Below, in pieces: positions 4,295 through 39,447 of a stretch of 64,000 nucleotides of DNA. The number at the start of each line of letters is the position of its first letter. Positions within the stretch are counted from its first letter, which is position 1. Origin of the DNA: Parcubacteria group bacterium M10-OD1-1 (GTDB lineage Bacteria > Patescibacteriota > Minisyncoccia > Moranbacterales > UBA2206); NCBI GenBank assembly GCA_003056145.1, contig LSNL01000003.1:4345-68344 (forward strand), written 5' to 3'. Below the pieces are notes generated by a model. That model had not been told where the DNA came from. It did no database searches and saw only the letters and a program-made list of their open reading frames with translations. The translations under genes were made by a program, and so were the position numbers.

Positions 4295-4346
4295 AATTTT
4301 TTTAAATACTTAATAAATAATAAAGGAAGTGAGGAAAGAAAATTGT

Positions 4347-5335: not shown

Positions 5336-5439
5336 TATGAAAGACAGATTTTGTTGAAAGAATGATGCAGATGAAATGTGCTTGTTGACACAACTTAAAA
5401 TGATTAAAAGTTGTTAATCCAAGTTTTTATCTTCATCAT

Positions 5440-6640
5440 TCTCTCAATAAAGAGGAGAGAGAAGCTGTTCTTTATATCGAAATAAAATGCTGAAAATATA
5501 TACAAGACCTGCAAGCCTTGTCACTGTGTTGGATAGGTCGCCTTTCGACGGAAACCGATTGCCAATGGCACATTTTACAAATCGTTTTCGTAAGGAAATC
5601 GACTGGGAGTGAAGACTTGAACTATCTTCGCTTTCAGAAATTTCCTTATGAGCGCCTTGTTGTTTAACTCGCTGTGAGTACAACAAGACAATCTAGAGGA
5701 AAATGCTCTTTGAAAAAAAACAAAATCATCATAGGAAGCTATCACGATGGTTTTGTAAACAAAATTGGTACTTGGCAGATAGTCTGTTTGGTTACCGAAA
5801 AAATCAGGGCTAACAAATGCCCCCTTGCCGACATTTTCATGGATGTCGTGATAGCCGAGGTTTCCTAAGGAGGAAATATCATGAATCAAAGAAATACTGG
5901 GAAGGAAGTAGTGTCCTTCCTCTGGAAGGAAGAAGGACTTGATGCGATTTTTTCCGGTGTGTCGTTTAACGACACACCGGACGGCAACGTTTGCACCTTT
6001 CTTTTTAGAAAGCAAGGTGTGAACGACGTACCGATATATTATCGGTACGAAATATTTGAACGACGCGACAGGCGTCGTTCAAAAGGACTGATTTTGACAT
6101 TACTCTTTACGAGTAATGTCAGGTCTCGGGTTGAATGCGTTTCCTTTCTAAAATTTTTAGAAAGGAATGGCCTACTCATCAGAAGGGCTGATGGCCCTGC
6201 TGATGAGTACTATGCCGACCCAAGGTTTATCACCTGTCCGCGCTTTGTGCGGATAAGTGATAAAATGTCTTTGCATTCAGAATTGTTGACCCTGACAAAT
6301 GGGGAAACAATTCTAGTAGAAATCTGGGCTCACTACCCAGAATACGAAGATGAAAATGAAGGAGACTTCCGTATAAAAAACATATGCTGGTTCCCAAAGG
6401 GGCACCATAGTTTTGATACGGAGGAAAATCCTGTAATATTCGCAGGTTTCCTGCGAATATGCCAAAACGGTAATACCGTCTTTGTAGACGGTATTTATTT
6501 CAATAACCGTGGAGGGCGCCACGGTATAATCGAAGAAGCAATTGACACACCAACGGCTACCGAGTAACCCTCGGCTAGTCGACAAACGTCGAGAGGTCGA
6601 CACTAAACAAACCCCCGAGCGACGGTAAGACGCGTTCATG
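5440..6640 (+). ncRNA. hairpin-dense tract of unknown function, candidate large structured RNA or hairpin array. The strand is uncertain; plus is suggested by the downstream plus-strand terminator.
   Basis: At least 25 local inverted repeats, many perfect 9-13 bp with 3-7 nt loops. Examples are 5955-5981 (11 bp), 6027-6049 (10 bp), 6057-6081 (10 bp), 6095-6121 (11 bp), 6141-6167 (12-13 bp), 6436-6460 (11 bp), 5656-5690 (8 bp) and 5832-5851 (6 bp). GC is higher than the flanks. The chance expectation for perfect 9+ bp hairpins in about 1 kb is far below one. Confidence 0.45.
5881..6567 (+). CDS. doubtful ORF (228 aa) overlapping the hairpin-dense tract; probably not a real protein gene
   Basis: Long ORF with an apparent SD aaggagg, but that SD is itself the hairpin tttcct-aagg-aggaaa. 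The ORF is saturated with perfect hairpins, its composition is rich in F and R, and overlapping ORFs occur on both strands, consistent with stop-codon depletion in GC-richer DNA. Confidence 0.2.
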   Translation: MNQRNTGKEVVSFLWKEEGLDAIFSGVSFNDTPDGNVCTFLFRKQGVNDVPIYYRYEIFERRDRRRSKGLILTLLFTSNVRSRVECVSFLKFLERNGLLIRRADGPADEYYADPRFITCPRFVRISDKMSLHSELLTLTNGETILVEIWAHYPEYEDENEGDFRIKNICWFPKGHHSFDTEENPVIFAGFLRICQNGNTVFVDGIYFNNRGGRHGIIEEAIDTPTATE

Positions 6641-6694
6641 AAATAAAATTATCTTGGTGTGAGTCCACCTAAAAACTCACTGCAGAAAGTACTA

Positions 6695-6739
6695 GGGGAT
6701 GAGCTTTCTGTAAGTTCAAGTTCAATCATCCCCTTTTTT
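6695..6739 (+). terminator. intrinsic terminator-like hairpin
   Basis: Stem ggggatga (6695-6702) / tcatcccc (6726-6733) with a 23-nt loop, followed by tttttt (6734-6739). Confidence 0.4.
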
Positions 6740-6999
6740 CCGAAATCATCAGTTTGTTAAAAATTGGTGGTTTCAGAGAAAAGATGCTCTTTGAAAAAAA
6801 TCTACAATACCGCAAATTGGTTGTGAATATTTGAATGTGGGATTGTTTAATTGACAACTAATTTGCAGTATTGTAGAAAAAATCCAAAGCCGGCAGGGTG
6901 TCGGTGGAGGGTAAATATTAATTTGTCTGATGCAATAATGCTGAGGACAACGGCGATTTTTCGCCCCCTAACTCCGGGGCTCGGAGTGGAGGAAGTAAG

Positions 7000-7644
7000 A
7001 TGTCCAATCAAGTGATAACTTTTGATAAAGTTGTGTCTGAGGTGGTTGCCAGCAAGGCAATTAAAAGAAATAAATATAACATCTGCCGCACCTGGCATGG
7101 ATGGATATCGAAAGACGTCCTACATATTACTAGTAGCTCCGGGGCTCGGCGGCGGAAAATTTGGCATTTCCCTATTATAAGGAATGCTGGAAAGGAGATG
7201 TTTTTTAAAAACACGACGGTAACTGCTGATTGCTGGACAGTTATTCCGGCAAAACAAGAAAAAGATCCTTATGGGAGGATTTTGAGACAGTGTAAACAAT
7301 CAAAAAAATTTCTCCACAGACATCAGCCTGGAGAAGTTGTCTATCTCAAAGGGAGATGGGCATATCTTCACTGTCATGTCCCGGGAGAGTCATCGTTTTA
7401 TGTTTCGTTCGATTCGGATGAGACGATCTTCGAAGGGCCCCTGATAAATGTTCCTGGGGGGCATTTTCAATATCAGGATTGGGAAGTGACGCTGTCCAAG
7501 TCCACTTGGGCAGTTGTCAGAAAGGCGCATGCCGATTCAAACGGTCGCGTGCGTAACTTTATCGAGGCTCTCCATATTTGGGGAGAGCCGGATATAGAAG
7601 AGGTTGCCTCCGCTGTGAGGAGAGGAACATTTGGGAGGAGTTAA
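7000..7644 (+). CDS. hypothetical protein (214 aa), uncertain, within the GC-rich insert
   Basis: ATG preceded by ggaggaag SD at -7 and a hairpin actccg-gggct-cggagt. Fewer perfect hairpins than the upstream tract, and a terminator-like hairpin downstream. Composition is W/H-rich and random-like, and I recognise no family. Confidence 0.3.
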   Translation: MSNQVITFDKVVSEVVASKAIKRNKYNICRTWHGWISKDVLHITSSSGARRRKIWHFPIIRNAGKEMFFKNTTVTADCWTVIPAKQEKDPYGRILRQCKQSKKFLHRHQPGEVVYLKGRWAYLHCHVPGESSFYVSFDSDETIFEGPLINVPGGHFQYQDWEVTLSKSTWAVVRKAHADSNGRVRNFIEALHIWGEPDIEEVASAVRRGTFGRS

Positions 7645-7659
7645 AAAGCGGACTTTTGT

Positions 7660-7700
7660 GCAGGATTGATGATTAGTTCTCATTCAATCCTGCCTATTAT
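7660..7700 (+). terminator. terminator-like hairpin downstream of ORF 7000-7644
   Basis: Stem gcaggattga (7660-7669) / tcaatcctgc (7684-7693). The downstream U-tract is weak. Confidence 0.3.
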
Positions 7701-8227: not shown

Positions 8228-8317
8228 TGGCGGAGGCGGGAGGATTCGAACCTCCGATACCGGTTAAGGTATAACGCTTTTCGAGAGCGCCCTATTCAAC
8301 CGCTCTAGCACGCCTCC
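8228..8317 (-). tRNA. tRNA-Ser (anticodon CGA), type II with long variable arm
   Basis: The reverse complement reads GGAGGCG...CTAG/D-loop...anticodon stem GCGCT/AGCGT with loop CTCGAAA (anticodon CGA)...long variable arm...GGAGG-TTCGAAT-CCTCC...CGCCTCC-G-CCA. The CCA is encoded. Confidence 0.8.
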
Positions 8318-12352: not shown

Positions 12353-13039
12353 ATGAAAAATCTTACTAAAAAAATTATAAAAAACTTAATTAACTATAAT
12401 AATAAAATATACAAAGTATTTTTTTTTAGTAGTTTTATTCTAGGAGTCAGTCTTTTTTTTGGAATAAATATTTCTCAAGCAGACTATATTTGTTTAAATC
12501 AGAGTAGCGCTTGTAGTGGTAATTGGGCTGATATTAACGCTTGTGGTGTAGGTGTTTGTAGTACAGGAGAAAAATGTTGTTCAATAGCGACAAAAACGAG
12601 CACGAATACAAGTACAAACACAAATTCTTCTACACCTAGCAAAGCAGGTAACACTTGGAAAAATCCAGATAATGCAACTTCCAATTCTAATGCAGTCCCT
12701 ATTTCTTTAGGTAATCAAAATAATAATACTTCAGCTAATAATGTTTCTGGAAGTGGACAACTTAATATTCCAACATTTAATCTTCCTAACCCACAAGGAG
12801 GAATTAAAGAAATTGCTCAAAATCTATTGAATTGGTTGTTGGGTATTTTGGGTATTATAGCGATAATCTCTTTTATTATAACTGGTTTACAATATTTTAT
12901 GGCAGCGGGAGATGAACAAATAGTTCAATCAGCTAAAAAGAACATGACTTATTCTATTTTAGGGATTATTGTGGCTCTCTCAGGCTTTATAATCATTCAA
13001 GCTATCGATGCAGCCTTACGAGCTACATCATTCTTTTAA
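12353..13039 (+). CDS. TrbC/VirB2-like pilin-family protein with Cys-rich and Thr/Asn-rich N-terminal region
   Basis: 228 aa. Signal peptide, Cys cluster (CLNQSSACSGNWADINACGVGVCSTGEKCCS), TSTNTSTNTNSS low-complexity linker, and the same C-terminal pilin-like core. Confidence 0.5.
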   Translation: MKNLTKKIIKNLINYNNKIYKVFFFSSFILGVSLFFGINISQADYICLNQSSACSGNWADINACGVGVCSTGEKCCSIATKTSTNTSTNTNSSTPSKAGNTWKNPDNATSNSNAVPISLGNQNNNTSANNVSGSGQLNIPTFNLPNPQGGIKEIAQNLLNWLLGILGIIAIISFIITGLQYFMAAGDEQIVQSAKKNMTYSILGIIVALSGFIIIQAIDAALRATSFF

Positions 13040-21050: not shown

Positions 21051-21335
21051 ATGGCTAATCATATGAATAAGGACGCTTTGGTTTCGGCTATTGCTGAGAG
21101 AACTGAGATTTCAAAAAAGGATACTGAATTGGTTATTGACACAATGATGGAGGTTATTACTAAAACTTTAAGAGAAGGAGAAAAAGTAGCTTTGACTGGT
21201 TTTGGAATTTTTAGAGCTTCTAAGAGAGCAGCAAGAGTAGGGATTAATCCTCAAACTAAAGAAAAAATTGAAATTCCAGCGATGACTGTTCCTAAATTTA
21301 CTGCCGGGAAAGCTTTAAAAGAAGCTATTAGATAA
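21051..21335 (+). CDS. hup: HU-family DNA-binding protein
   Basis: 94 aa. MNKDALVSAIAE..., GFGIF and the arm motif RVGINPQTKEKIEIPA. Confidence 0.85.
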   Translation: MANHMNKDALVSAIAERTEISKKDTELVIDTMMEVITKTLREGEKVALTGFGIFRASKRAARVGINPQTKEKIEIPAMTVPKFTAGKALKEAIR

Positions 21336-21375
21336 ATTTGTATTACGAATTTTAATAAAAGATAGAAACAAAATC

Positions 21376-21410
21376 CTGTTTGAACGGGATTTTGTTATGG
21401 AACCAGAAGA
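21376..21410 (+). terminator. intrinsic terminator-like hairpin after hup
   Basis: Stem caaaatcc/ggattttg (8 bp) with loop tgtttgaac, followed by ttgtt. Confidence 0.4.
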
Positions 21411-21629
21411 GTTAAACAATTGACTAAATAGAAAGAATTTTTTTAGATAATTTTTATTAAAAGTAGCTAAGTGGCTATTTTTAATAAGAGAAAATAATTT
21501 AGATTATTTAAAAACTTAAAAATATTAAATATAATTAATTTATTAAAACTTTAGGAATAAAAATAGATATTGACTGGAATCAAATTTAAAGATAGTATTA
21601 AATAGTGATTTAAAATAAAAATAAATTAA

Positions 21630-21700
21630 CGGAGTGTCGTATACCGGTAGTACGCATGTTTTGGGAACATGTTGACTGGGTTCGATTCCCAGCACTCCGA
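21630..21700 (+). tRNA. tRNA-Pro (anticodon UGG)
   Basis: Acceptor CGGAGTG/CACTCCG (C1-G72 as in bacterial tRNA-Pro). Anticodon stem CATGT/ACATG with loop TTTGGGA (U33, anticodon TGG, G37). T-arm CTGGG-TTCGATT-CCCAG, discriminator A, and CCA not encoded. The D-arm is somewhat atypical. Confidence 0.75.
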
Positions 21701-21920
21701 CTAAAAAAGTTGATTTATGATTGAATTTCAGGTAGGATAAGTTTTAGAATGAAAATTTCCGAAATACAGAAAAATAAGATAAATATCTAAATAGTTTTTC
21801 TGGACGAGGTTAATTTGCAGAAAGGAATGTTTTGATTGTAAAGATAACTATGAACGGGAAAAATATTTAAGTTTTAGATATAAAAAATAATTTTTCTGAA
21901 GTTTAATTAAAAAATAAATT

Positions 21921-21992
21921 GCGGGTGTCGTATAGTGGCTATTATATCAGCCTTCCAAGCTGAGGAGGGGGGTTCGATTCCCCCTACCCGCT
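21921..21992 (+). tRNA. tRNA-Gly (anticodon UCC)
   Basis: Acceptor GCGGGTG/TACCCGC. Anticodon stem TCAGC/GCTGA with loop CTTCCAA (anticodon TCC). T-arm GGGGG-TTCGATT-CCCCC and discriminator T. An AU-rich hairpin plus T-run follows at about 21995-22035. Confidence 0.75.
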
Positions 21993-22498
21993 CAAAAATA
22001 AAAAAACTCTGGACTGGCTCTGGAGTTTTTTTCTTTCTGTTAGTAGAATGGAGGATTGAATAGATAAATACAAACTAGAAAAGATACAAAAGAATTTTTA
22101 TAGAGAACGCTGATAAATTTGAGTAAGTGGGAATTTGGCATTAGCTAGAACAATGAGATTGAATTTATTGAGGCGAGATGAAACTTTCTTGACACTTAAA
22201 AGGTTGTTTAAGCTTTTGTTATTTTAGAGTAAAAATAATATTTGAAATAAATTATTGTACGAAAAGTAGTAATGGTATTTTATTAAGGGAGATGATGTTA
22301 TAATCTGTATTTAGAATAAAGTTTTAGCTAGAATAAGGTGTAAATATTAAGCTATTCTTTGGGTGAGGTGATAAAAGCTTGACAAGATTTTGTTTATCTG
22401 CTAGGGTGAACTTTAAAGGTATAAAAAAGAAAGTTATTTAACAATCATTGCCTAGGAAGGAGTTTCCTGGGTTAAAAAACTAAAAAAGGAGAGCGGTT

Positions 22499-23347
22499 AT
22501 GAAAAAAGAATTGTTACTGGTGTGTCTGGTGTGTTGTCTAATGGTTTTTCCAAGTCAAAGTTTTGCTGATTCGTCAGGCGTTGGAATCGCTGGCGCTCAG
22601 GCTGTTATTAACGGAGGGGATGTCCAGGTGAATCCTGGGCAAGTTGTGTCTCCAAGTGCGAATGCGAATCTGAGTATCGATTCGCATTCGAAAGTGAGCA
22701 ATCGTAATTTTTTGCAGACGGGATATCCAGCGGCCCCAGCGCCGATGACTTACTTTGGCCCCTGGAAAAAGGGACTACCGTATAATGTAATCCAACTTGC
22801 AGTTGGATCGGTATGGAAGTGGGCAGGAATGAGGAAGGTATCTTCCAGTAGTGCTAAAGCACTGTTAGAAGATATCCAACATCCATTTCCGCCGACGGCA
22901 GAAATAAAAGTTGTCTCCCCTGAGAAAGGGGAGGGAACCTTTGTCGGCAATATTGTTGTCCTAGTTGACAGCAATCAAGCGAGCTTTAACGCTCGCAACA
23001 TAGCTCTAAAAGTAGCCATGAAGGCTGGTGCCGACCAGCTGGAAATCTATTCCAACAATTACATTCAGAAGCCAACTAGCTCTGGTTGGCATTTCGGTTT
23101 TGGCGGTGGTGCCTCGGGCATCATCGGCAATGATAGCACATCAATTGCAGGCTCAGGAGGAACCGGATTTGGATCCTCCAGCCTTCATTTGGCGAGCCTT
23201 CCATTTATTAAGGCCCGTCTTTGGAGGTCAGCTACTGCAGTTGATTTGGCCAGCGTCAGCGAAGACGAAAGCTATGCACCGGCGGTCAAAGCCAAATCTT
23301 CTAATGAGGATTGGCATATAAAAGACTTAAGTAATTTTGACAATTAA
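22499..23347 (+). CDS. secreted protein of unknown function (GC-rich, likely horizontally acquired)
   Basis: 282 aa. Signal peptide MKKELLLVCLVCCLMVFPSQSFA, SD ggagag upstream, and a Gly-rich C-region. Composition contrasts strongly with the flanking AT-rich genes. No family recognised. Confidence 0.5.
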   Translation: MKKELLLVCLVCCLMVFPSQSFADSSGVGIAGAQAVINGGDVQVNPGQVVSPSANANLSIDSHSKVSNRNFLQTGYPAAPAPMTYFGPWKKGLPYNVIQLAVGSVWKWAGMRKVSSSSAKALLEDIQHPFPPTAEIKVVSPEKGEGTFVGNIVVLVDSNQASFNARNIALKVAMKAGADQLEIYSNNYIQKPTSSGWHFGFGGGASGIIGNDSTSIAGSGGTGFGSSSLHLASLPFIKARLWRSATAVDLASVSEDESYAPAVKAKSSNEDWHIKDLSNFDN

Positions 23348-23472
23348 CAAAAAAGGAGGTGATTTTCAGAATTTTCAGTAAGTAACACGAGTAACATAAC
23401 ATTCTCCATTCCTAGTTGGGATGGAGGTAATTATGGGACATTCCCGTGTCCCGAACAAAAAAGGAGAAAGTC

Positions 23473-23901
23473 ATGAAAAAGATGTTATCAAAAATGGCAG
23501 TATCGATGTCAATTATTGCCCTGATTATGGTTGCCATCCCGGCTCTTGCCCAATCAGGAGGAAGTGTGGAGGGAGGTAATTCGTCCTGGCTGTCAGGCTT
23601 TGATAATGGCATTACCCACATCTCGGCCAATCAACGATCCTGGCAACAGACAGTTATCCAGGTACCCGGTCAAACATTTAACGCCGTTTCAAACAGCAAC
23701 ACCGGGTTCCAGCTGAATGCTGCCGATGGCGTAGCCGCCGCCGAAACAACTACAGATATAGGTTTTTACACTAATTCTAGTGGAAACCTGGGAGCCTTTT
23801 CTGATGCCAATGTGGCATCGATCGCTGCAGGTAACGCCATGAGCATTACCTGGGCAGCCTCAAATTCTTCCCTGAGCCAATATGGTGGCGGGGAGCGATA
23901 G
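23473..23901 (+). CDS. secreted protein of unknown function (GC-rich)
   Basis: Start set at ATG 23473 (MKKMLSKMAVSMSIIALIMVAIPALA signal peptide) with SD aaaggag 7 nt upstream. The listed ORF begins at an upstream GTG. A strong terminator follows. Confidence 0.45.
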   Translation: MKKMLSKMAVSMSIIALIMVAIPALAQSGGSVEGGNSSWLSGFDNGITHISANQRSWQQTVIQVPGQTFNAVSNSNTGFQLNAADGVAAAETTTDIGFYTNSSGNLGAFSDANVASIAAGNAMSITWAASNSSLSQYGGGER

Positions 23902-23919
23902 TCTAAAGGTTCTGCTGAT

Positions 23920-23960
23920 GCCACCAAGATATCTAATATCTTGGTGGCATTTTTTTTTAT
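23920..23960 (+). terminator. intrinsic terminator
   Basis: 12-13 bp perfect stem gccaccaagatat / atatcttggtggc with a short loop, followed by a run of 9 T. Confidence 0.7.
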
Positions 23961-24016
23961 TAAATTTTAAGAGTTTTAGAATGGAAGCTAAAGCTCCTTT
24001 ATGATACAATGACAAA

Positions 24017-24805
24017 ATGAGGAAAGAGATAAGTTTAAATAAAATATTACTGGTGTTTTTGGTAAGCGTTTTTTTTAGCGGATGCGGTTTTTCTTCAAAT
24101 GGACAAAAAACAGAGATTGATTTAAAGTTAGATCAAAAGAAATTTATTTCAACAAAAAAGAATGTAGATAATATTCAAAAAAAAACAGTAGAGAATCATA
24201 AATCTACTAGTAATAAGGCTAAAGTTCTTAAAAAGGAAACAGCTCCTGTGACAAAGATAGTAACTTCTAGACAGAAAACAAAAAAAACCAAGACAGTGGC
24301 AAAAACTGAGACAAAAAATTTATTTACTGCAGATAGAGGATTGAAAATTAAGAATGATTTGGTTTCTTGGGGGTATCAAAAATATAACGGAACACGAAAA
24401 ATTGACACAATTATTATCCATTCTACCTATAATCCACTAGGAGGAGGACAATATGATTTTTCTAAAATTTTAGCTATCTATAAAAAATATAAAGTTTCAC
24501 CACATTATCTCATAGAAAGAGATGGAGCAATTTATCGCTTGGTTAAAGAAAACAATATTGCTTATCATGCTGGAATTAGTAGGGTTCCAGATAATAGGAC
24601 TAATGTTAATAATTTTTCTATTGGAATTGAGATGATTGGGAATAAAATCGATGGATATACTAAGGCACAATATAATTCAGTCAAGAAACTGATTAACCAA
24701 ATTAAGAGTGAATATAAAATAAAATATATTTTGGGACATAAAGATATTGCTCCTGGACGAAAAACTGATCCATGGAATTTTGATTGGAAAAAAATAAAAA
24801 AATAA
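24017..24805 (+). CDS. N-acetylmuramoyl-L-alanine amidase (amidase_2/PGRP fold) lipoprotein
   Basis: 262 aa. Lipobox FFSGC, then a C-terminal domain with IIIHSTYNP...YHAG...GIEMIG...GHKDIAPGRKTDP, which is the AmpD/PGRP family signature. Confidence 0.65.
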   Translation: MRKEISLNKILLVFLVSVFFSGCGFSSNGQKTEIDLKLDQKKFISTKKNVDNIQKKTVENHKSTSNKAKVLKKETAPVTKIVTSRQKTKKTKTVAKTETKNLFTADRGLKIKNDLVSWGYQKYNGTRKIDTIIIHSTYNPLGGGQYDFSKILAIYKKYKVSPHYLIERDGAIYRLVKENNIAYHAGISRVPDNRTNVNNFSIGIEMIGNKIDGYTKAQYNSVKKLINQIKSEYKIKYILGHKDIAPGRKTDPWNFDWKKIKK

Positions 24806-38952: not shown

Positions 38953-39447
38953 ATGAAGAAATTTACCATGATTTCAGCTATAGTTGTGATGAGTTGTTTT
39001 ATTGGTCTTATGGGTTGCAGGAGATTCACTCAACCAAAGGTCAGCAAGAAAATGGAAAGGGAGATGATCTCTAGCATATACATGGCTCCACCGTTAGTGT
39101 GGGTGGGATTACCTACTTCATGGATGGGGGGAATGGGAGGAGAATACTGTAAAATAGTTGAGCTCAATGCGTTCAGCTATGAAGTAGGGAAATCTCTAAA
39201 AGAAACTAACGGGGGCAAGCTCCCTGAGATGCTGGGCGCGCAATTCGAGAACGCATGGCCAGTAACTGCCCATGCGACTGGGATAGCGGGAGTCCAATGG
39301 CTCCCAAGAGGGGAAGGGAAGTTTAGTTATGTTGGAGGCAACAGTGGGAAACGATGGGTAAAAAAGAAGTTTAGTGGGGAGTGTCAGTTTATGCTGTATC
39401 ATGATATTTATGGCAAATGGAGGCTGGTACGCAACTGGCAGAATTAG
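38953..39447 (+). CDS. lipoprotein of unknown function (GC-rich insert)
   Basis: 164 aa. SD aggaggag, signal peptide plus lipobox LMGC, and GC-rich relative to recA and ndk. Confidence 0.5.
   Translation: MKKFTMISAIVVMSCFIGLMGCRRFTQPKVSKKMEREMISSIYMAPPLVWVGLPTSWMGGMGGEYCKIVELNAFSYEVGKSLKETNGGKLPEMLGAQFENAWPVTAHATGIAGVQWLPRGEGKFSYVGGNSGKRWVKKKFSGECQFMLYHDIYGKWRLVRNWQN

Follow-up and report, generated by a model that had tools for sequence, protein, structure and literature searches.

Genes A and B at the tRNA-Gly/amidase site

Genes A and B are two adjacent open reading frames (ORFs) in Parcubacteria group bacterium M10-OD1-1 (GenBank assembly GCA_003056145.1, contig LSNL01000003.1), a tiny Moranbacteria-like organism with an AT-rich genome. 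They lie in a stretch of 64,000 nt (positions 4,345 to 68,344 of the contig, forward strand) that is called the window throughout; positions of A and B are window coordinates. The window has a GC content of 0.319, and its gene content includes rny, hup, rpoBC, recA, a ribosomal-protein operon, and a gene resembling a type IV secretion system (T4SS) pilin. A and B are the only window ORFs between a tRNA-Gly gene and an amidase gene (Table 1). The pair is almost certainly a genuine conserved secreted-protein cassette of an undescribed family, and it probably builds a variable cell-surface structure.

A and B, as read from the DNA, are real, co-transcribable genes with their own putative promoter region and a strong terminator. 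That they are real genes follows from homologues over the full length of A and from a ratio of nonsynonymous to synonymous divergence (dN/dS) between alleles of 0.22-0.30. Both genes carry the Shine-Dalgarno (SD) sequence GGAG 9-10 nt ahead of their ATG, and both products look Sec-exported. By inspection, A begins with the signal-peptide-like segment MKKELLLVCLVCCLMVFPSQSFA|DS (residues 1-23) and B with MKKMLSKMAVSMSIIALIMVAIPALA|QS (residues 1-26), in agreement with an initial annotation of this DNA that had credited both genes with signal peptides and good SDs. In A, the signal peptide is followed by a low-complexity linker (~24-62), an NRxF...YFGPW...YNV motif (68-98), and an α/β domain resembling dodecin, YbjQ, DUF1471, and RcsF (~100-195 and 229-243). 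This domain is interrupted by an uncharged Gly-rich β-hairpin at 196-226, GWHFGFGGGASGIIG-NDS-TSIAGSGGTGFG, and the protein ends in a variable tail (250-282). Mature B comprises 116 amino acids, of which 69% are G/S/A/N/T/Q/Y and 8% are charged, and has the N-terminus QSGGSVEGG. An upstream ORF at 23433-23579 (SD ggaggtaattATG plus ATG, 48 codons) overlaps the beginning of B in another reading frame. It is unlikely to be a gene, since the sister allele loses its stop codon and several residues change.

The composition of A and B is strongly atypical. The initial annotation had described them as roughly 50% GC, and computation gives 0.471 for A and 0.494 for B, that is, 47% and 49% against 32%. 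GC at third codon positions (GC3) is 0.43 in A and, according to which start is taken, 0.475-0.49 in B. Of the 60 long window ORFs, 55 fall within 0.14-0.27, and A and B are among the five that do not. The GC excess is synonymous, because amino-acid composition alone predicts a GC of only 0.38-0.40 and a GC3 of about 0.2 (0.19-0.21). Among Leu codons, CTG accounts for 37% in A and B and 2% in reference genes of the window, and CTG, GCC, GGC, ATC, and AGC are the over-used codons. The comparison with the genome that the initial annotation had proposed thus sets A and B apart from other window genes.

The composition borders of the cassette are sharp. The tRNA-Gly gene is followed by a terminator-like hairpin (22000-22032), and the 505 nt that separate this tRNA from gene A have a GC of 0.29; the amidase gene downstream of B has a GC of 0.28. 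The order tRNA-Pro, tRNA-Gly, A, B is therefore as first described, whereas "immediately downstream" was too loose a term for genes that lie beyond 505 nt and a terminator-like hairpin. A scan with Rfam returned the tRNAs only, plus one sub-threshold match on the terminator.

Table 1. Features of the cassette and its surroundings (window coordinates) and copies of gene C in other loci (coordinates of those loci)
Feature	Position	Strand	Remarks
tRNA-Pro (tgg)	21630..21701	+	ARAGORN; Rfam RF00005, 56 bits; context, outside the cassette
tRNA-Gly (tcc)	21921..21993	+	ARAGORN, Rfam; context, outside the cassette
Putative sigma-70-type promoter of the A-B operon	22379..22407	+	cTTGACAa, 17-nt spacer, TAGGGT; read from sequence
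Gene A	22499..23347	+	ORF, 282 amino acids
Perfect 12-bp hairpin in A	22659..22690	+	cgaatgcgaatc-TGAGTATC-gattcgcattcg; codons for ANANLSIDSHS; clearest example
Allele-replacement block	23012..23842	+	99 of 153 differences; last 112 codons of A, spacer, most of B
Orphan SD	23351..23362	+	AAAGGAGGTGAT; exact complement of the 16S rRNA 3' tail; no start codon
Gene B	23473..23901	+	ORF, 142 amino acids
Intrinsic terminator of the operon	23918..23958	+	Perfect 15-bp stem (23918-23932 / 23936-23950), 3-nt loop, T9; inverted repeat
Gene C, L077	5972-6133
Gene C, L079	5879-6025
Gene C, L081	1081-1215
Gene C, L083	1306-1440		Same as L089 7912-8046
Gene C, L086	5720-5848
Gene C, L078	6162-6293

The A family and the A-(C)-B cassette

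The A family and its cassette are undescribed in curated libraries. Pfam, NCBIfam, and PHROGs gave nothing above noise for A, B, or the other GC-rich window ORFs (Pfam on A up to E 1), and a PDB sequence and profile search with A gave nothing below E 0.07, with 2ma4 and 2noc at E 0.8. When 56 A-family members were compared with Pfam (E up to 0.01), scattered single matches appeared and no relevant family. A word-indexed homologue search found same-species copies of A and B and one distant relative of A; repeated with the family alignment, it was dominated by low-complexity words and added only P0154. A profile search seeded with A and its distant relative, by contrast, recovered 153 cluster representatives, 20 of them below E 1e-10. 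The earlier statement that no families are recognizable thus holds for curated libraries, but A belongs to a conserved cassette and is not an orphan. The sole annotation of one A-family cluster is a hypothetical protein of Moranbacteria from the Rifle aquifer.

Homologues of A are full-length, share 22-38% identity and conserved motifs, and are at most 38% identical to A outside the species. Family members have in common a signal peptide, a low-complexity linker of variable length, the motif NRQF...YFGPW...WNV, and a helix ending in GA(N/D). These are followed by GWxIGFGGGASG ... GGTG(Y/F)G and then by P(W/F).

Contigs were examined for 12 independent A-family members, and loci from other genomes are given here by their handles. 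A B-like gene adjoins the A-like gene in eight of the 12 loci: the window group, L003, L074, L077, L078, L079, L081, and L086. B-like ORFs encode 133-181 amino acids with a signal peptide and a mature part that is 64-70% G/S/A/N/T/Q/Y and 4-9% charged, and five of the eight proteins have the mature N-terminus GGS(F/V/Y). Their orientation varies by locus, being upstream of, downstream of, or convergent to the A-like gene. Of 3037 ORFs in the ~1.2 Mb of loci retrieved, a filter on architecture and composition selects 15, every one of them the neighbor of an A-like gene; this specificity is striking, even though the filter was designed after the B-like proteins had been seen. Homologues of the fast-evolving B itself were found in the same species only.

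A third gene, C, encodes a lipoprotein of 42-53 amino acids and starts within a few bases of the A stop codon in six independent loci (Table 1); it is absent from the window. Its product carries a lipobox of the form L-[ST]-[AG]-C, and the mature peptide is Pro-rich and 22-33 residues long. Gene C is unannotated or barely annotated and is missed by most gene callers.

Hosts of the cassette are mainly Moranbacteria-like genomes of the candidate phyla radiation (CPR), with one copy (L078) in an anaerobe that does not look like a CPR member. The cassette occupies a different locus in each genome, beside dnaK, dnaJ, recA/thrS, rseP, manC, or cca, and a tRNA lies within 1.5 kb of it in only two of the other genomes. 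L089 comes from a sibling assembly in the same accession series as the window's assembly, and L001 (GCA_003056095.1, LSNQ01000011) comes from a sister strain that is 99.3% identical to the window over 20.8 kb. Many relatives are labeled "uncultured Bdellovibrionales", though their gene content and neighbors look like Moranbacteria. A further copy, L002/L004, is the 3-kb contig CAZZIX010000326.1 (GCA_964654345.1), which carries the cassette and the amidase gene and is 96% identical to the window; its amidase protein is identical to that of the window. This contig is filed in a metagenome-assembled genome named "uncultured Methylomarinum sp." and is almost certainly a mis-binned CPR contig.

Synonymous GC and hairpin excess

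The GC-richness of the cassette arises at synonymous codon positions. All low-GC hosts examined show it, together with an excess of hairpins. Nine of ten independent cassettes have flanking genes (L081 has none), and eight of these nine are 9-17 GC points above their flanks, the exception being L003. GC values of flank or contig, followed by those of the A-like and B-like genes, are 0.30 and 0.46/0.475 in L086, 0.315 and 0.41/0.46 in L079, 0.34 and 0.49 in L089 (no B), 0.36 and 0.445/0.50 in L077, 0.385 and 0.51/0.54 in L074, and 0.45 and 0.54/0.55 in L078. L003, with a contig GC of 0.42, is the sole cassette without raised GC3.

Against dinucleotide shuffles, folding energy gives a z of -12.4 for the whole of gene A and -4.0 for B plus its terminator. 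A stricter null used synonymous-codon shuffles that keep the protein and the codon set, scored in 120-nt windows. By this measure, 27 ordinary genes of the window have local-structure z values of -2.8 to +1.6, A has -5.8, B -1.9, and the other GC-rich window ORFs -17.4, -3.8, and -2.7. A-like genes in L001, L074, L077, L079, L086, L083, and L078 score -4.4 to -13.9 and that of L089 -6.3. Housekeeping neighbors of other cassettes mostly score -1.8 to +2.8, with one BNR-repeat gene at -4.0. The A-like gene of L003 has a z of 0.0, with neither hairpin excess nor GC3 excess.

The stems in A-like genes are perfect Watson-Crick inverted repeats of 7-12 bp that lie over conserved peptide motifs. GC3 excess and hairpin excess travel together, which points to maintenance of the composition by selection for structured, stable mRNA or by a palindrome-generating mutation process.

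Allele replacement between near-identical strains

In this species, the cassette is a recombination hot spot in which an allele replacement of about 830 bp has occurred. The window and L001 differ at 153 positions in 20.8 kb. Only about 12 of these lie outside the replacement block (Table 1) and the T4SS-pilin-like gene, leaving a background that is 99.95% identical. The first 170 codons of A are identical in the two strains; synonymous divergence (dS) then reaches 0.26 in the rest of A and 0.37 in B, where dN/dS is 0.30. A and B are thus under purifying selection, and public data hold two B alleles that are 81% identical as proteins.

The abrupt onset of dS together with low dN/dS is characteristic of homologous recombination in which a diverged but functional coding allele took the place of another, and not of hypermutation. 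Mutagenesis by a diversity-generating retroelement was considered for the variable block and rejected in favor of recombination, because all four bases are affected, the changes are mostly synonymous, and divergence starts abruptly after 170 identical codons.

The T4SS-pilin-like gene (PF18895, 12353-13039) is a second divergence hot spot, with 42 of the 153 differences within 12500-13000. In contrast to A and B, its GC is ordinary (0.31), and its z of -2.2 shows no excess of structure. Both hot spots encode exported or surface proteins.

Promoter, terminator, and orphan Shine-Dalgarno sequence

The putative sigma-70-type promoter lies about 90 nt ahead of the A start codon. A consensus scan did not flag it, because its -10 hexamer agrees with the consensus at only three of six positions. 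Similar elements of the form CTTGACAA-N17-TAnnnT also occur upstream of the cassettes in L089, L086, and L079. At the other end of the operon, the hairpin and T9 of the terminator were correctly recognized at the outset, although the stem is longer than the 12-13 bp then given (Table 1). A hairpin in the spacer (gggaca/tgtccc, 23435-23452) exists as described, but with 6 bp it is trivial and at chance level in AT-rich DNA. Repeats of 15 nt, AGTTTTAGAATG(A/G)AA, at 21740 and 23972 were likewise discarded as chance-level for AT-rich DNA.

The spacer between A and B does contain the orphan SD that had been reported there. It lies 4 nt past the A stop codon and 111 nt ahead of the B start codon, and it proved to be a recurrent element of the cassette rather than a one-off. 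The sequence AGGAGGTGA occurs 19 times in 1.25 Mb of non-redundant loci, 14 times without a usable start. Five independent cassettes (window, L074, L077, L079, and L086) have an SD in an untranslated leader or spacer with no start codon at initiation distance, 83-114 nt ahead of the start of an A-like or B-like gene, against an expectation of about 0.2 such sites given the fraction of the sequence that cassettes occupy.

The orphan SD resembles the STAB-SD mRNA stabilizer of Bacillus thuringiensis cryIIIA (Agaisse & Lereclus 1996, PMID 8736542, as cited in PMC7509114) and may act as one. In the related case of Bacillus subtilis hbs mRNA, ribosomes on a strong SD block RNase J1 (PMC5737220). 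The likeness consists of a perfect, start-less complement of the 16S rRNA tail in the untranslated leader or spacer of genes for presumably abundant exported proteins. A stabilizer of this type would lengthen mRNA half-life by binding 30S subunits and so blocking 5' exonuclease. The genome of the present organism encodes RNase Y (rny). Alternatively, the orphan SD of the window may be what is left of the ribosome-binding site of gene C, because C, which the window lacks, starts at exactly that position in other cassettes. The SD context AACAAAAAAGGAGGT (23346-23360) is directly repeated 108 nt downstream at B's own ribosome-binding site, AACAAAAAAGGAGAA (23454-23468), which suggests a duplication or insertion between A and B. 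Taken together, the hairpins, the SD, and the 15-bp terminator suggest transcripts built for stability, as would be expected for an abundant exported structural protein.

Predicted structure and known envelope systems

An AlphaFold2 model of A, built from a 56-sequence alignment, has a mean predicted local distance difference test (pLDDT) score of 75, with 108 residues above 90. In the model, a helix (162-175) accompanies three short strands, and a pair of 30-residue strands (180-209 and 214-243) makes up one long hairpin with a pLDDT of 78-85 at its tip. Residues 196-225 are essentially charge-free across 54 A-family members; charges resume at 226-228, and 62-70% of members also carry a charge at the tip (212-213). 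One face of the hairpin carries Gly (200, 202, 204, 221, 223, and 225) and the other W197, I/F199, F201, and Y/F224; the base of the hairpin is aromatic. Conservation within the family peaks in the Gly-rich segment (G221 98%, G200 87%, T222 75%). The model of B, from three near-identical rows, has a pLDDT of 33 and is uninformative.

The best structural matches of A are small periplasmic or lipoprotein domains. A shares a dodecin-like β-α-β envelope fold with DUF1471/YhcN (PF07338; BhsA, YdgH, SrfN, and YahO), YbjQ/UPF0145 (PF01906), the RcsF C-terminal domain, and Francisella FvfA. It differs from them in its N-terminal NRQF...YFGPW...WNV motif and in the extension of its two C-terminal strands into a Gly-rich hairpin of 30 residues per strand. 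Their taxonomic ranges also differ, since A is found in CPR genomes and DUF1471-type proteins in Enterobacteria or Francisella. A literature search on FvfA and on CPR pore-forming proteins returned nothing specific.

Foldseek found nothing significant for A in the PDB (E at least 0.017, TM score ~0.1), and its weak top matches are almost all pore-state β-pore-forming toxins (β-PFTs) together with the flagellar L-ring protein FlgH. This pattern is a hint from a model, and not evidence of homology, that A may be oligomeric and that its hairpins may form a barrel or collar. Like α-hemolysin, NetB, aerolysin, lysenin, and FlgH, A is predicted to combine a globular domain with one long, uncharged, Gly/Ser-rich amphipathic β-hairpin with a polar tip. 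In the known proteins, such hairpins are stable only within an oligomeric barrel. The likeness is one of shape only, as the globular domain of A is unrelated and neither Pfam nor Foldseek revealed cap- or rim-type homology to the leukocidin/hemolysin, aerolysin, or lysenin families. The pre-stem hairpin of PFTs is amphipathic and uncharged and measures about 2 x 12-15 residues with a polar tip. The predicted hairpin of A is charge-free over 196-225 across the family, with a charged tip and weak alternation of hydrophobicity.

B invites comparison with curli (CsgA and the CsgG lipoprotein channel) and Fap, being a small secreted protein of ~115-130 amino acids that is rich in G/S/N/Q/A/Y and poor in charge. 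As in curli, a B-like gene lies beside genes for a lipoprotein and a candidate oligomeric β-structure protein. The differences are that no curlin repeats are seen, that the Pfam curli families match neither A nor B, and that most cassette hosts probably lack an outer membrane.

Proposed function

The A-(C)-B cassette may encode an envelope assembly with an oligomeric A, a tethering C, a variable surface B, and a stabilized mRNA; the probability of this reading is put at roughly 0.3-0.4. A would oligomerize through its α/β domain, and its amphipathic hairpins would line up into a collar resembling a β-barrel in or on the membrane or envelope layer. C, where present, would anchor the assembly to the membrane. 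B would be an exported protein of low complexity that passes through A, is nucleated by A, or is held by it. Together, the two would build a surface structure that varies, such as a fibre, coat, or attachment site, and that phages or hosts can reach. Hairpins, SD decoy, and 15-bp terminator would make the mRNA unusually stable and highly expressed, and this stability, rather than recent import alone, would keep the genes GC-rich in AT-rich genomes.

The clustering of strain differences in the cassette and in the T4SS-pilin-like surface gene speaks for a variable surface role. Several observations weigh against the proposal. The A hairpin is a monomer prediction from a 56-sequence alignment, and its hydrophobic face is weak (W/I/F, then G/A/G), with little alternation past W197/I199/F201; membrane insertion is therefore not assured. 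An A barrel would have no obvious target, since CPR cells are believed to be without an outer membrane. B is not obligatory, since the L083/L089 lineage has the order recA, A, C, thrS without B. Among themselves, B-like proteins show no similarity by phmmer or jackhmmer and no detected internal repeats, so their relatedness rests on position, size, and composition, and the filter that selects them was designed after the fact. Alleles do not preserve individual hairpins of the coding sequence (in L001, the stem at 23071-23090 is disrupted), and the hairpin excess is present on both strands, so that a cause in the DNA or in mutation is no less possible than selection on mRNA. Finally, the orphan SD of the window, like that of L074, lies between A and B, whereas the known stabilizer is near the 5' end of its transcript.

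Alternative explanations

An account of the locus as a recently acquired islet at a tRNA hotspot, with effector or toxin/immunity cargo and the unameliorated composition of a donor of ~50% GC, is unlikely, though several observations speak for it. Codon usage of A and B is atypical, and three more window ORFs (5881, 7000, and 38953) are of like composition, two of them beside tRNA-Ser. Donors are available, as most Moranbacteria genomes have 44-59% GC; outside the species, A has no relative above 38% identity, and the allele replacement shows DNA exchange at the locus.

The comparison of the syntenic hup-tRNA-amidase region also speaks for acquisition. Four Moranbacteria loci of higher GC (L008, L011, L014, and L021) keep the frame rny-hup-tRNA-Pro-tRNA-Gly(tcc)...amidase-rpoB, in which other genes fill the ~7 kb from the tRNAs to the amidase gene; A and B are absent from this frame. 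The cassette is therefore lineage-specific at the tRNA-Gly/amidase site and is not shared by all relatives. The cassette thus has the atypical composition and the absence from the syntenic site in relatives that are features of genomic islands. In the same four loci, a 248-amino-acid FNR-like gene sits between tRNA-Pro and tRNA-Gly, and the ~6 kb from tRNA-Gly(tcc) to the amidase gene hold FKBP, thrS, a 472-amino-acid secreted protein, and tRNA-Gly(ccc). The FNR-like gene, FKBP, thrS, the 472-amino-acid protein, and tRNA-Gly(ccc) have been lost or relocated in the window lineage (21702-21920 and 21994-24016).

Tests of the islet itself turn against it. Between tRNA-Gly and the amidase gene, no integrase, recombinase, or transposase is present, A and B being the only genes there and without a match in Pfam, NCBIfam, or PHROGs. 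A repeat search of 21300-24300 found no att-like copy of the tRNA-Gly or tRNA-Pro 3' end and yielded only AT-rich repeats of 15-22 nt at chance level. The cassette shares with tRNA-linked genomic islands the presence of atypical accessory genes downstream of tRNAs that are absent at the same site in relatives; it differs in having no integrase or tRNA 3'-end repeat, in measuring just 1.9 kb, and in being mostly not tRNA-linked elsewhere. The acquisition-hotspot argument of the initial annotation is accordingly weak, all the more so as GC is host-like both in the 505 nt upstream and in the flanks.

GC-richness, which had also been read as a mark of recent transfer, does not prove recent foreign origin, because it recurs in low-GC hosts by way of synonymous hairpins: eight of the nine cassettes with flanks are GC-rich, with a hairpin excess beyond codon usage. 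Eight imports from richer donors, or repeated recent import into every such genome, would be unparsimonious. Exchange within a shared gene pool is possible and fits the allele replacement, and the copy in the window lineage was probably acquired or relocated through horizontal exchange within the group, since syntenic relatives lack the cassette. As for cargo, no toxin, immunity, or phage family matches, and nothing supports a toxin/immunity pair. Of the effector, surface-protein, and toxin options first offered, a surface protein is the most plausible.

It is rather unlikely that A is a soluble extracytoplasmic stress or biofilm-type protein like DUF1471 (BhsA, YdgH, and SrfN) or RcsF, forming no pore or collar, with B an unrelated wall-associated Gly/Ser-rich protein and the hairpin a flexible Gly loop over-regularized by AlphaFold. 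The best structural matches of A, the moderate pLDDT at the tip of a weakly hydrophobic hairpin, and the lineage that has A without B would all suit such a protein. On the other hand, a stretch of ~30 charge-free residues between charged positions, in the most conserved segment of the family, would be uncommon in a floppy loop. Moreover, many genomes link A, C, and B, and the Pfam models of DUF1471, YbjQ, and RcsF match 0 of 56 members.

A further possibility is that A is a secreted β-pore-forming toxin directed against the membrane of a host bacterium or competitor, giving an episymbiont access to nutrients, with B and C in accessory or protective roles. CPR bacteria depend on hosts, the locus varies between strains, and A pairs a globular domain with an uncharged amphipathic hairpin whose tip is charged; its only PDB shape matches are pore-state β-PFTs, none of them significant. 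Such a toxin is nevertheless improbable, given that the Foldseek scores indicate no PFT homology and that no Pfam toxin domain is found. A lipoprotein gene directly after A suggests anchoring to the producer's own membrane, and the cassette also occurs in L078, a genome that does not resemble a CPR epibiont.

That the region is not, or not only, protein-coding, its ORFs being incidental to a hairpin-dense structured RNA or to mobile or viral DNA, is suggested by the whole-gene fold z values of A and of B plus terminator and by the like-composed perfect-hairpin array at 5880-6640 (z = -16), but is highly improbable and already largely refuted for A and B by full-length protein homologues of A (22-38%) with conserved motifs and a confident predicted fold, by allele substitutions that are mostly synonymous per site (dN/dS 0.2-0.3), and by Rfam and PHROG searches that matched only tRNAs and nothing, respectively.

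Other GC-rich stretches of the window

A second GC-rich stretch, 5400-7700 (GC 0.43-0.45), includes ORFs 5881-6567 and 7000-7644 and lies near tRNA-Ser (8228-8317, minus strand). It has no Pfam, PHROG, or Rfam match, and one of its hairpins has no exact match in viral contigs. Positions 5880-6640 hold a tandem array of ~15 strong hairpins, seven of them with perfect stems of 10-14 bp, with a z of -16 against dinucleotide shuffles and -17 against synonymous shuffles. The "protein" of this array is known only as identical copies in metagenomes of the same organism (SRR6439370/72, VAPL/VAPM). Rather than a gene, this stretch may represent either a large structured RNA or palindromes arrayed at the DNA level.

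ORF 38953-39447, between recA and ndk, has a GC of 0.46, a GC3 of 0.49, a lipoprotein-like N-terminus (...CFIGLMGC), and no family match. In L089, the slot directly after recA holds an A-like gene and a mini-lipoprotein gene instead of cargo like ORF 38953. The post-recA slot therefore appears to hold different GC-rich exported cargo in related genomes.

Significance

Members of the CPR, or Patescibacteria, are thought to live attached to other cells. To our knowledge, very few surface components have been identified in them, and most of the proteins that they export lack annotation. The cassette is a concrete, expressible candidate for a host- or phage-facing surface structure, because it is compact, conserved, and strain-variable and has a confidently predicted, unusual architecture. 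With a function predicted from sequence and a structural model, the finding is more interesting than a generic islet would be.

GC3 excess, hairpin excess, and start-less SDs in at least eight genomes also caution against reading GC-rich genes in AT-rich genomes as recent imports, and they make the cassette a natural system for the study of selection on mRNA structure at synonymous sites. In its most specific form, which is quite unlikely as a whole, A would be a ring with a β-barrel pore or collar and a lipopeptide tether of 20-30 residues that exports or nucleates a hypervariable, curli-like host-attachment protein, and lineage-independent selection would favor hairpin-dense, GC-rich, SD-decoy-protected mRNAs. 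If true, it would provide a clear case of synonymous sites shaped by mRNA stability and not by genomic mutation bias, and it would reveal a previously unrecognized envelope machine of CPR bacteria.

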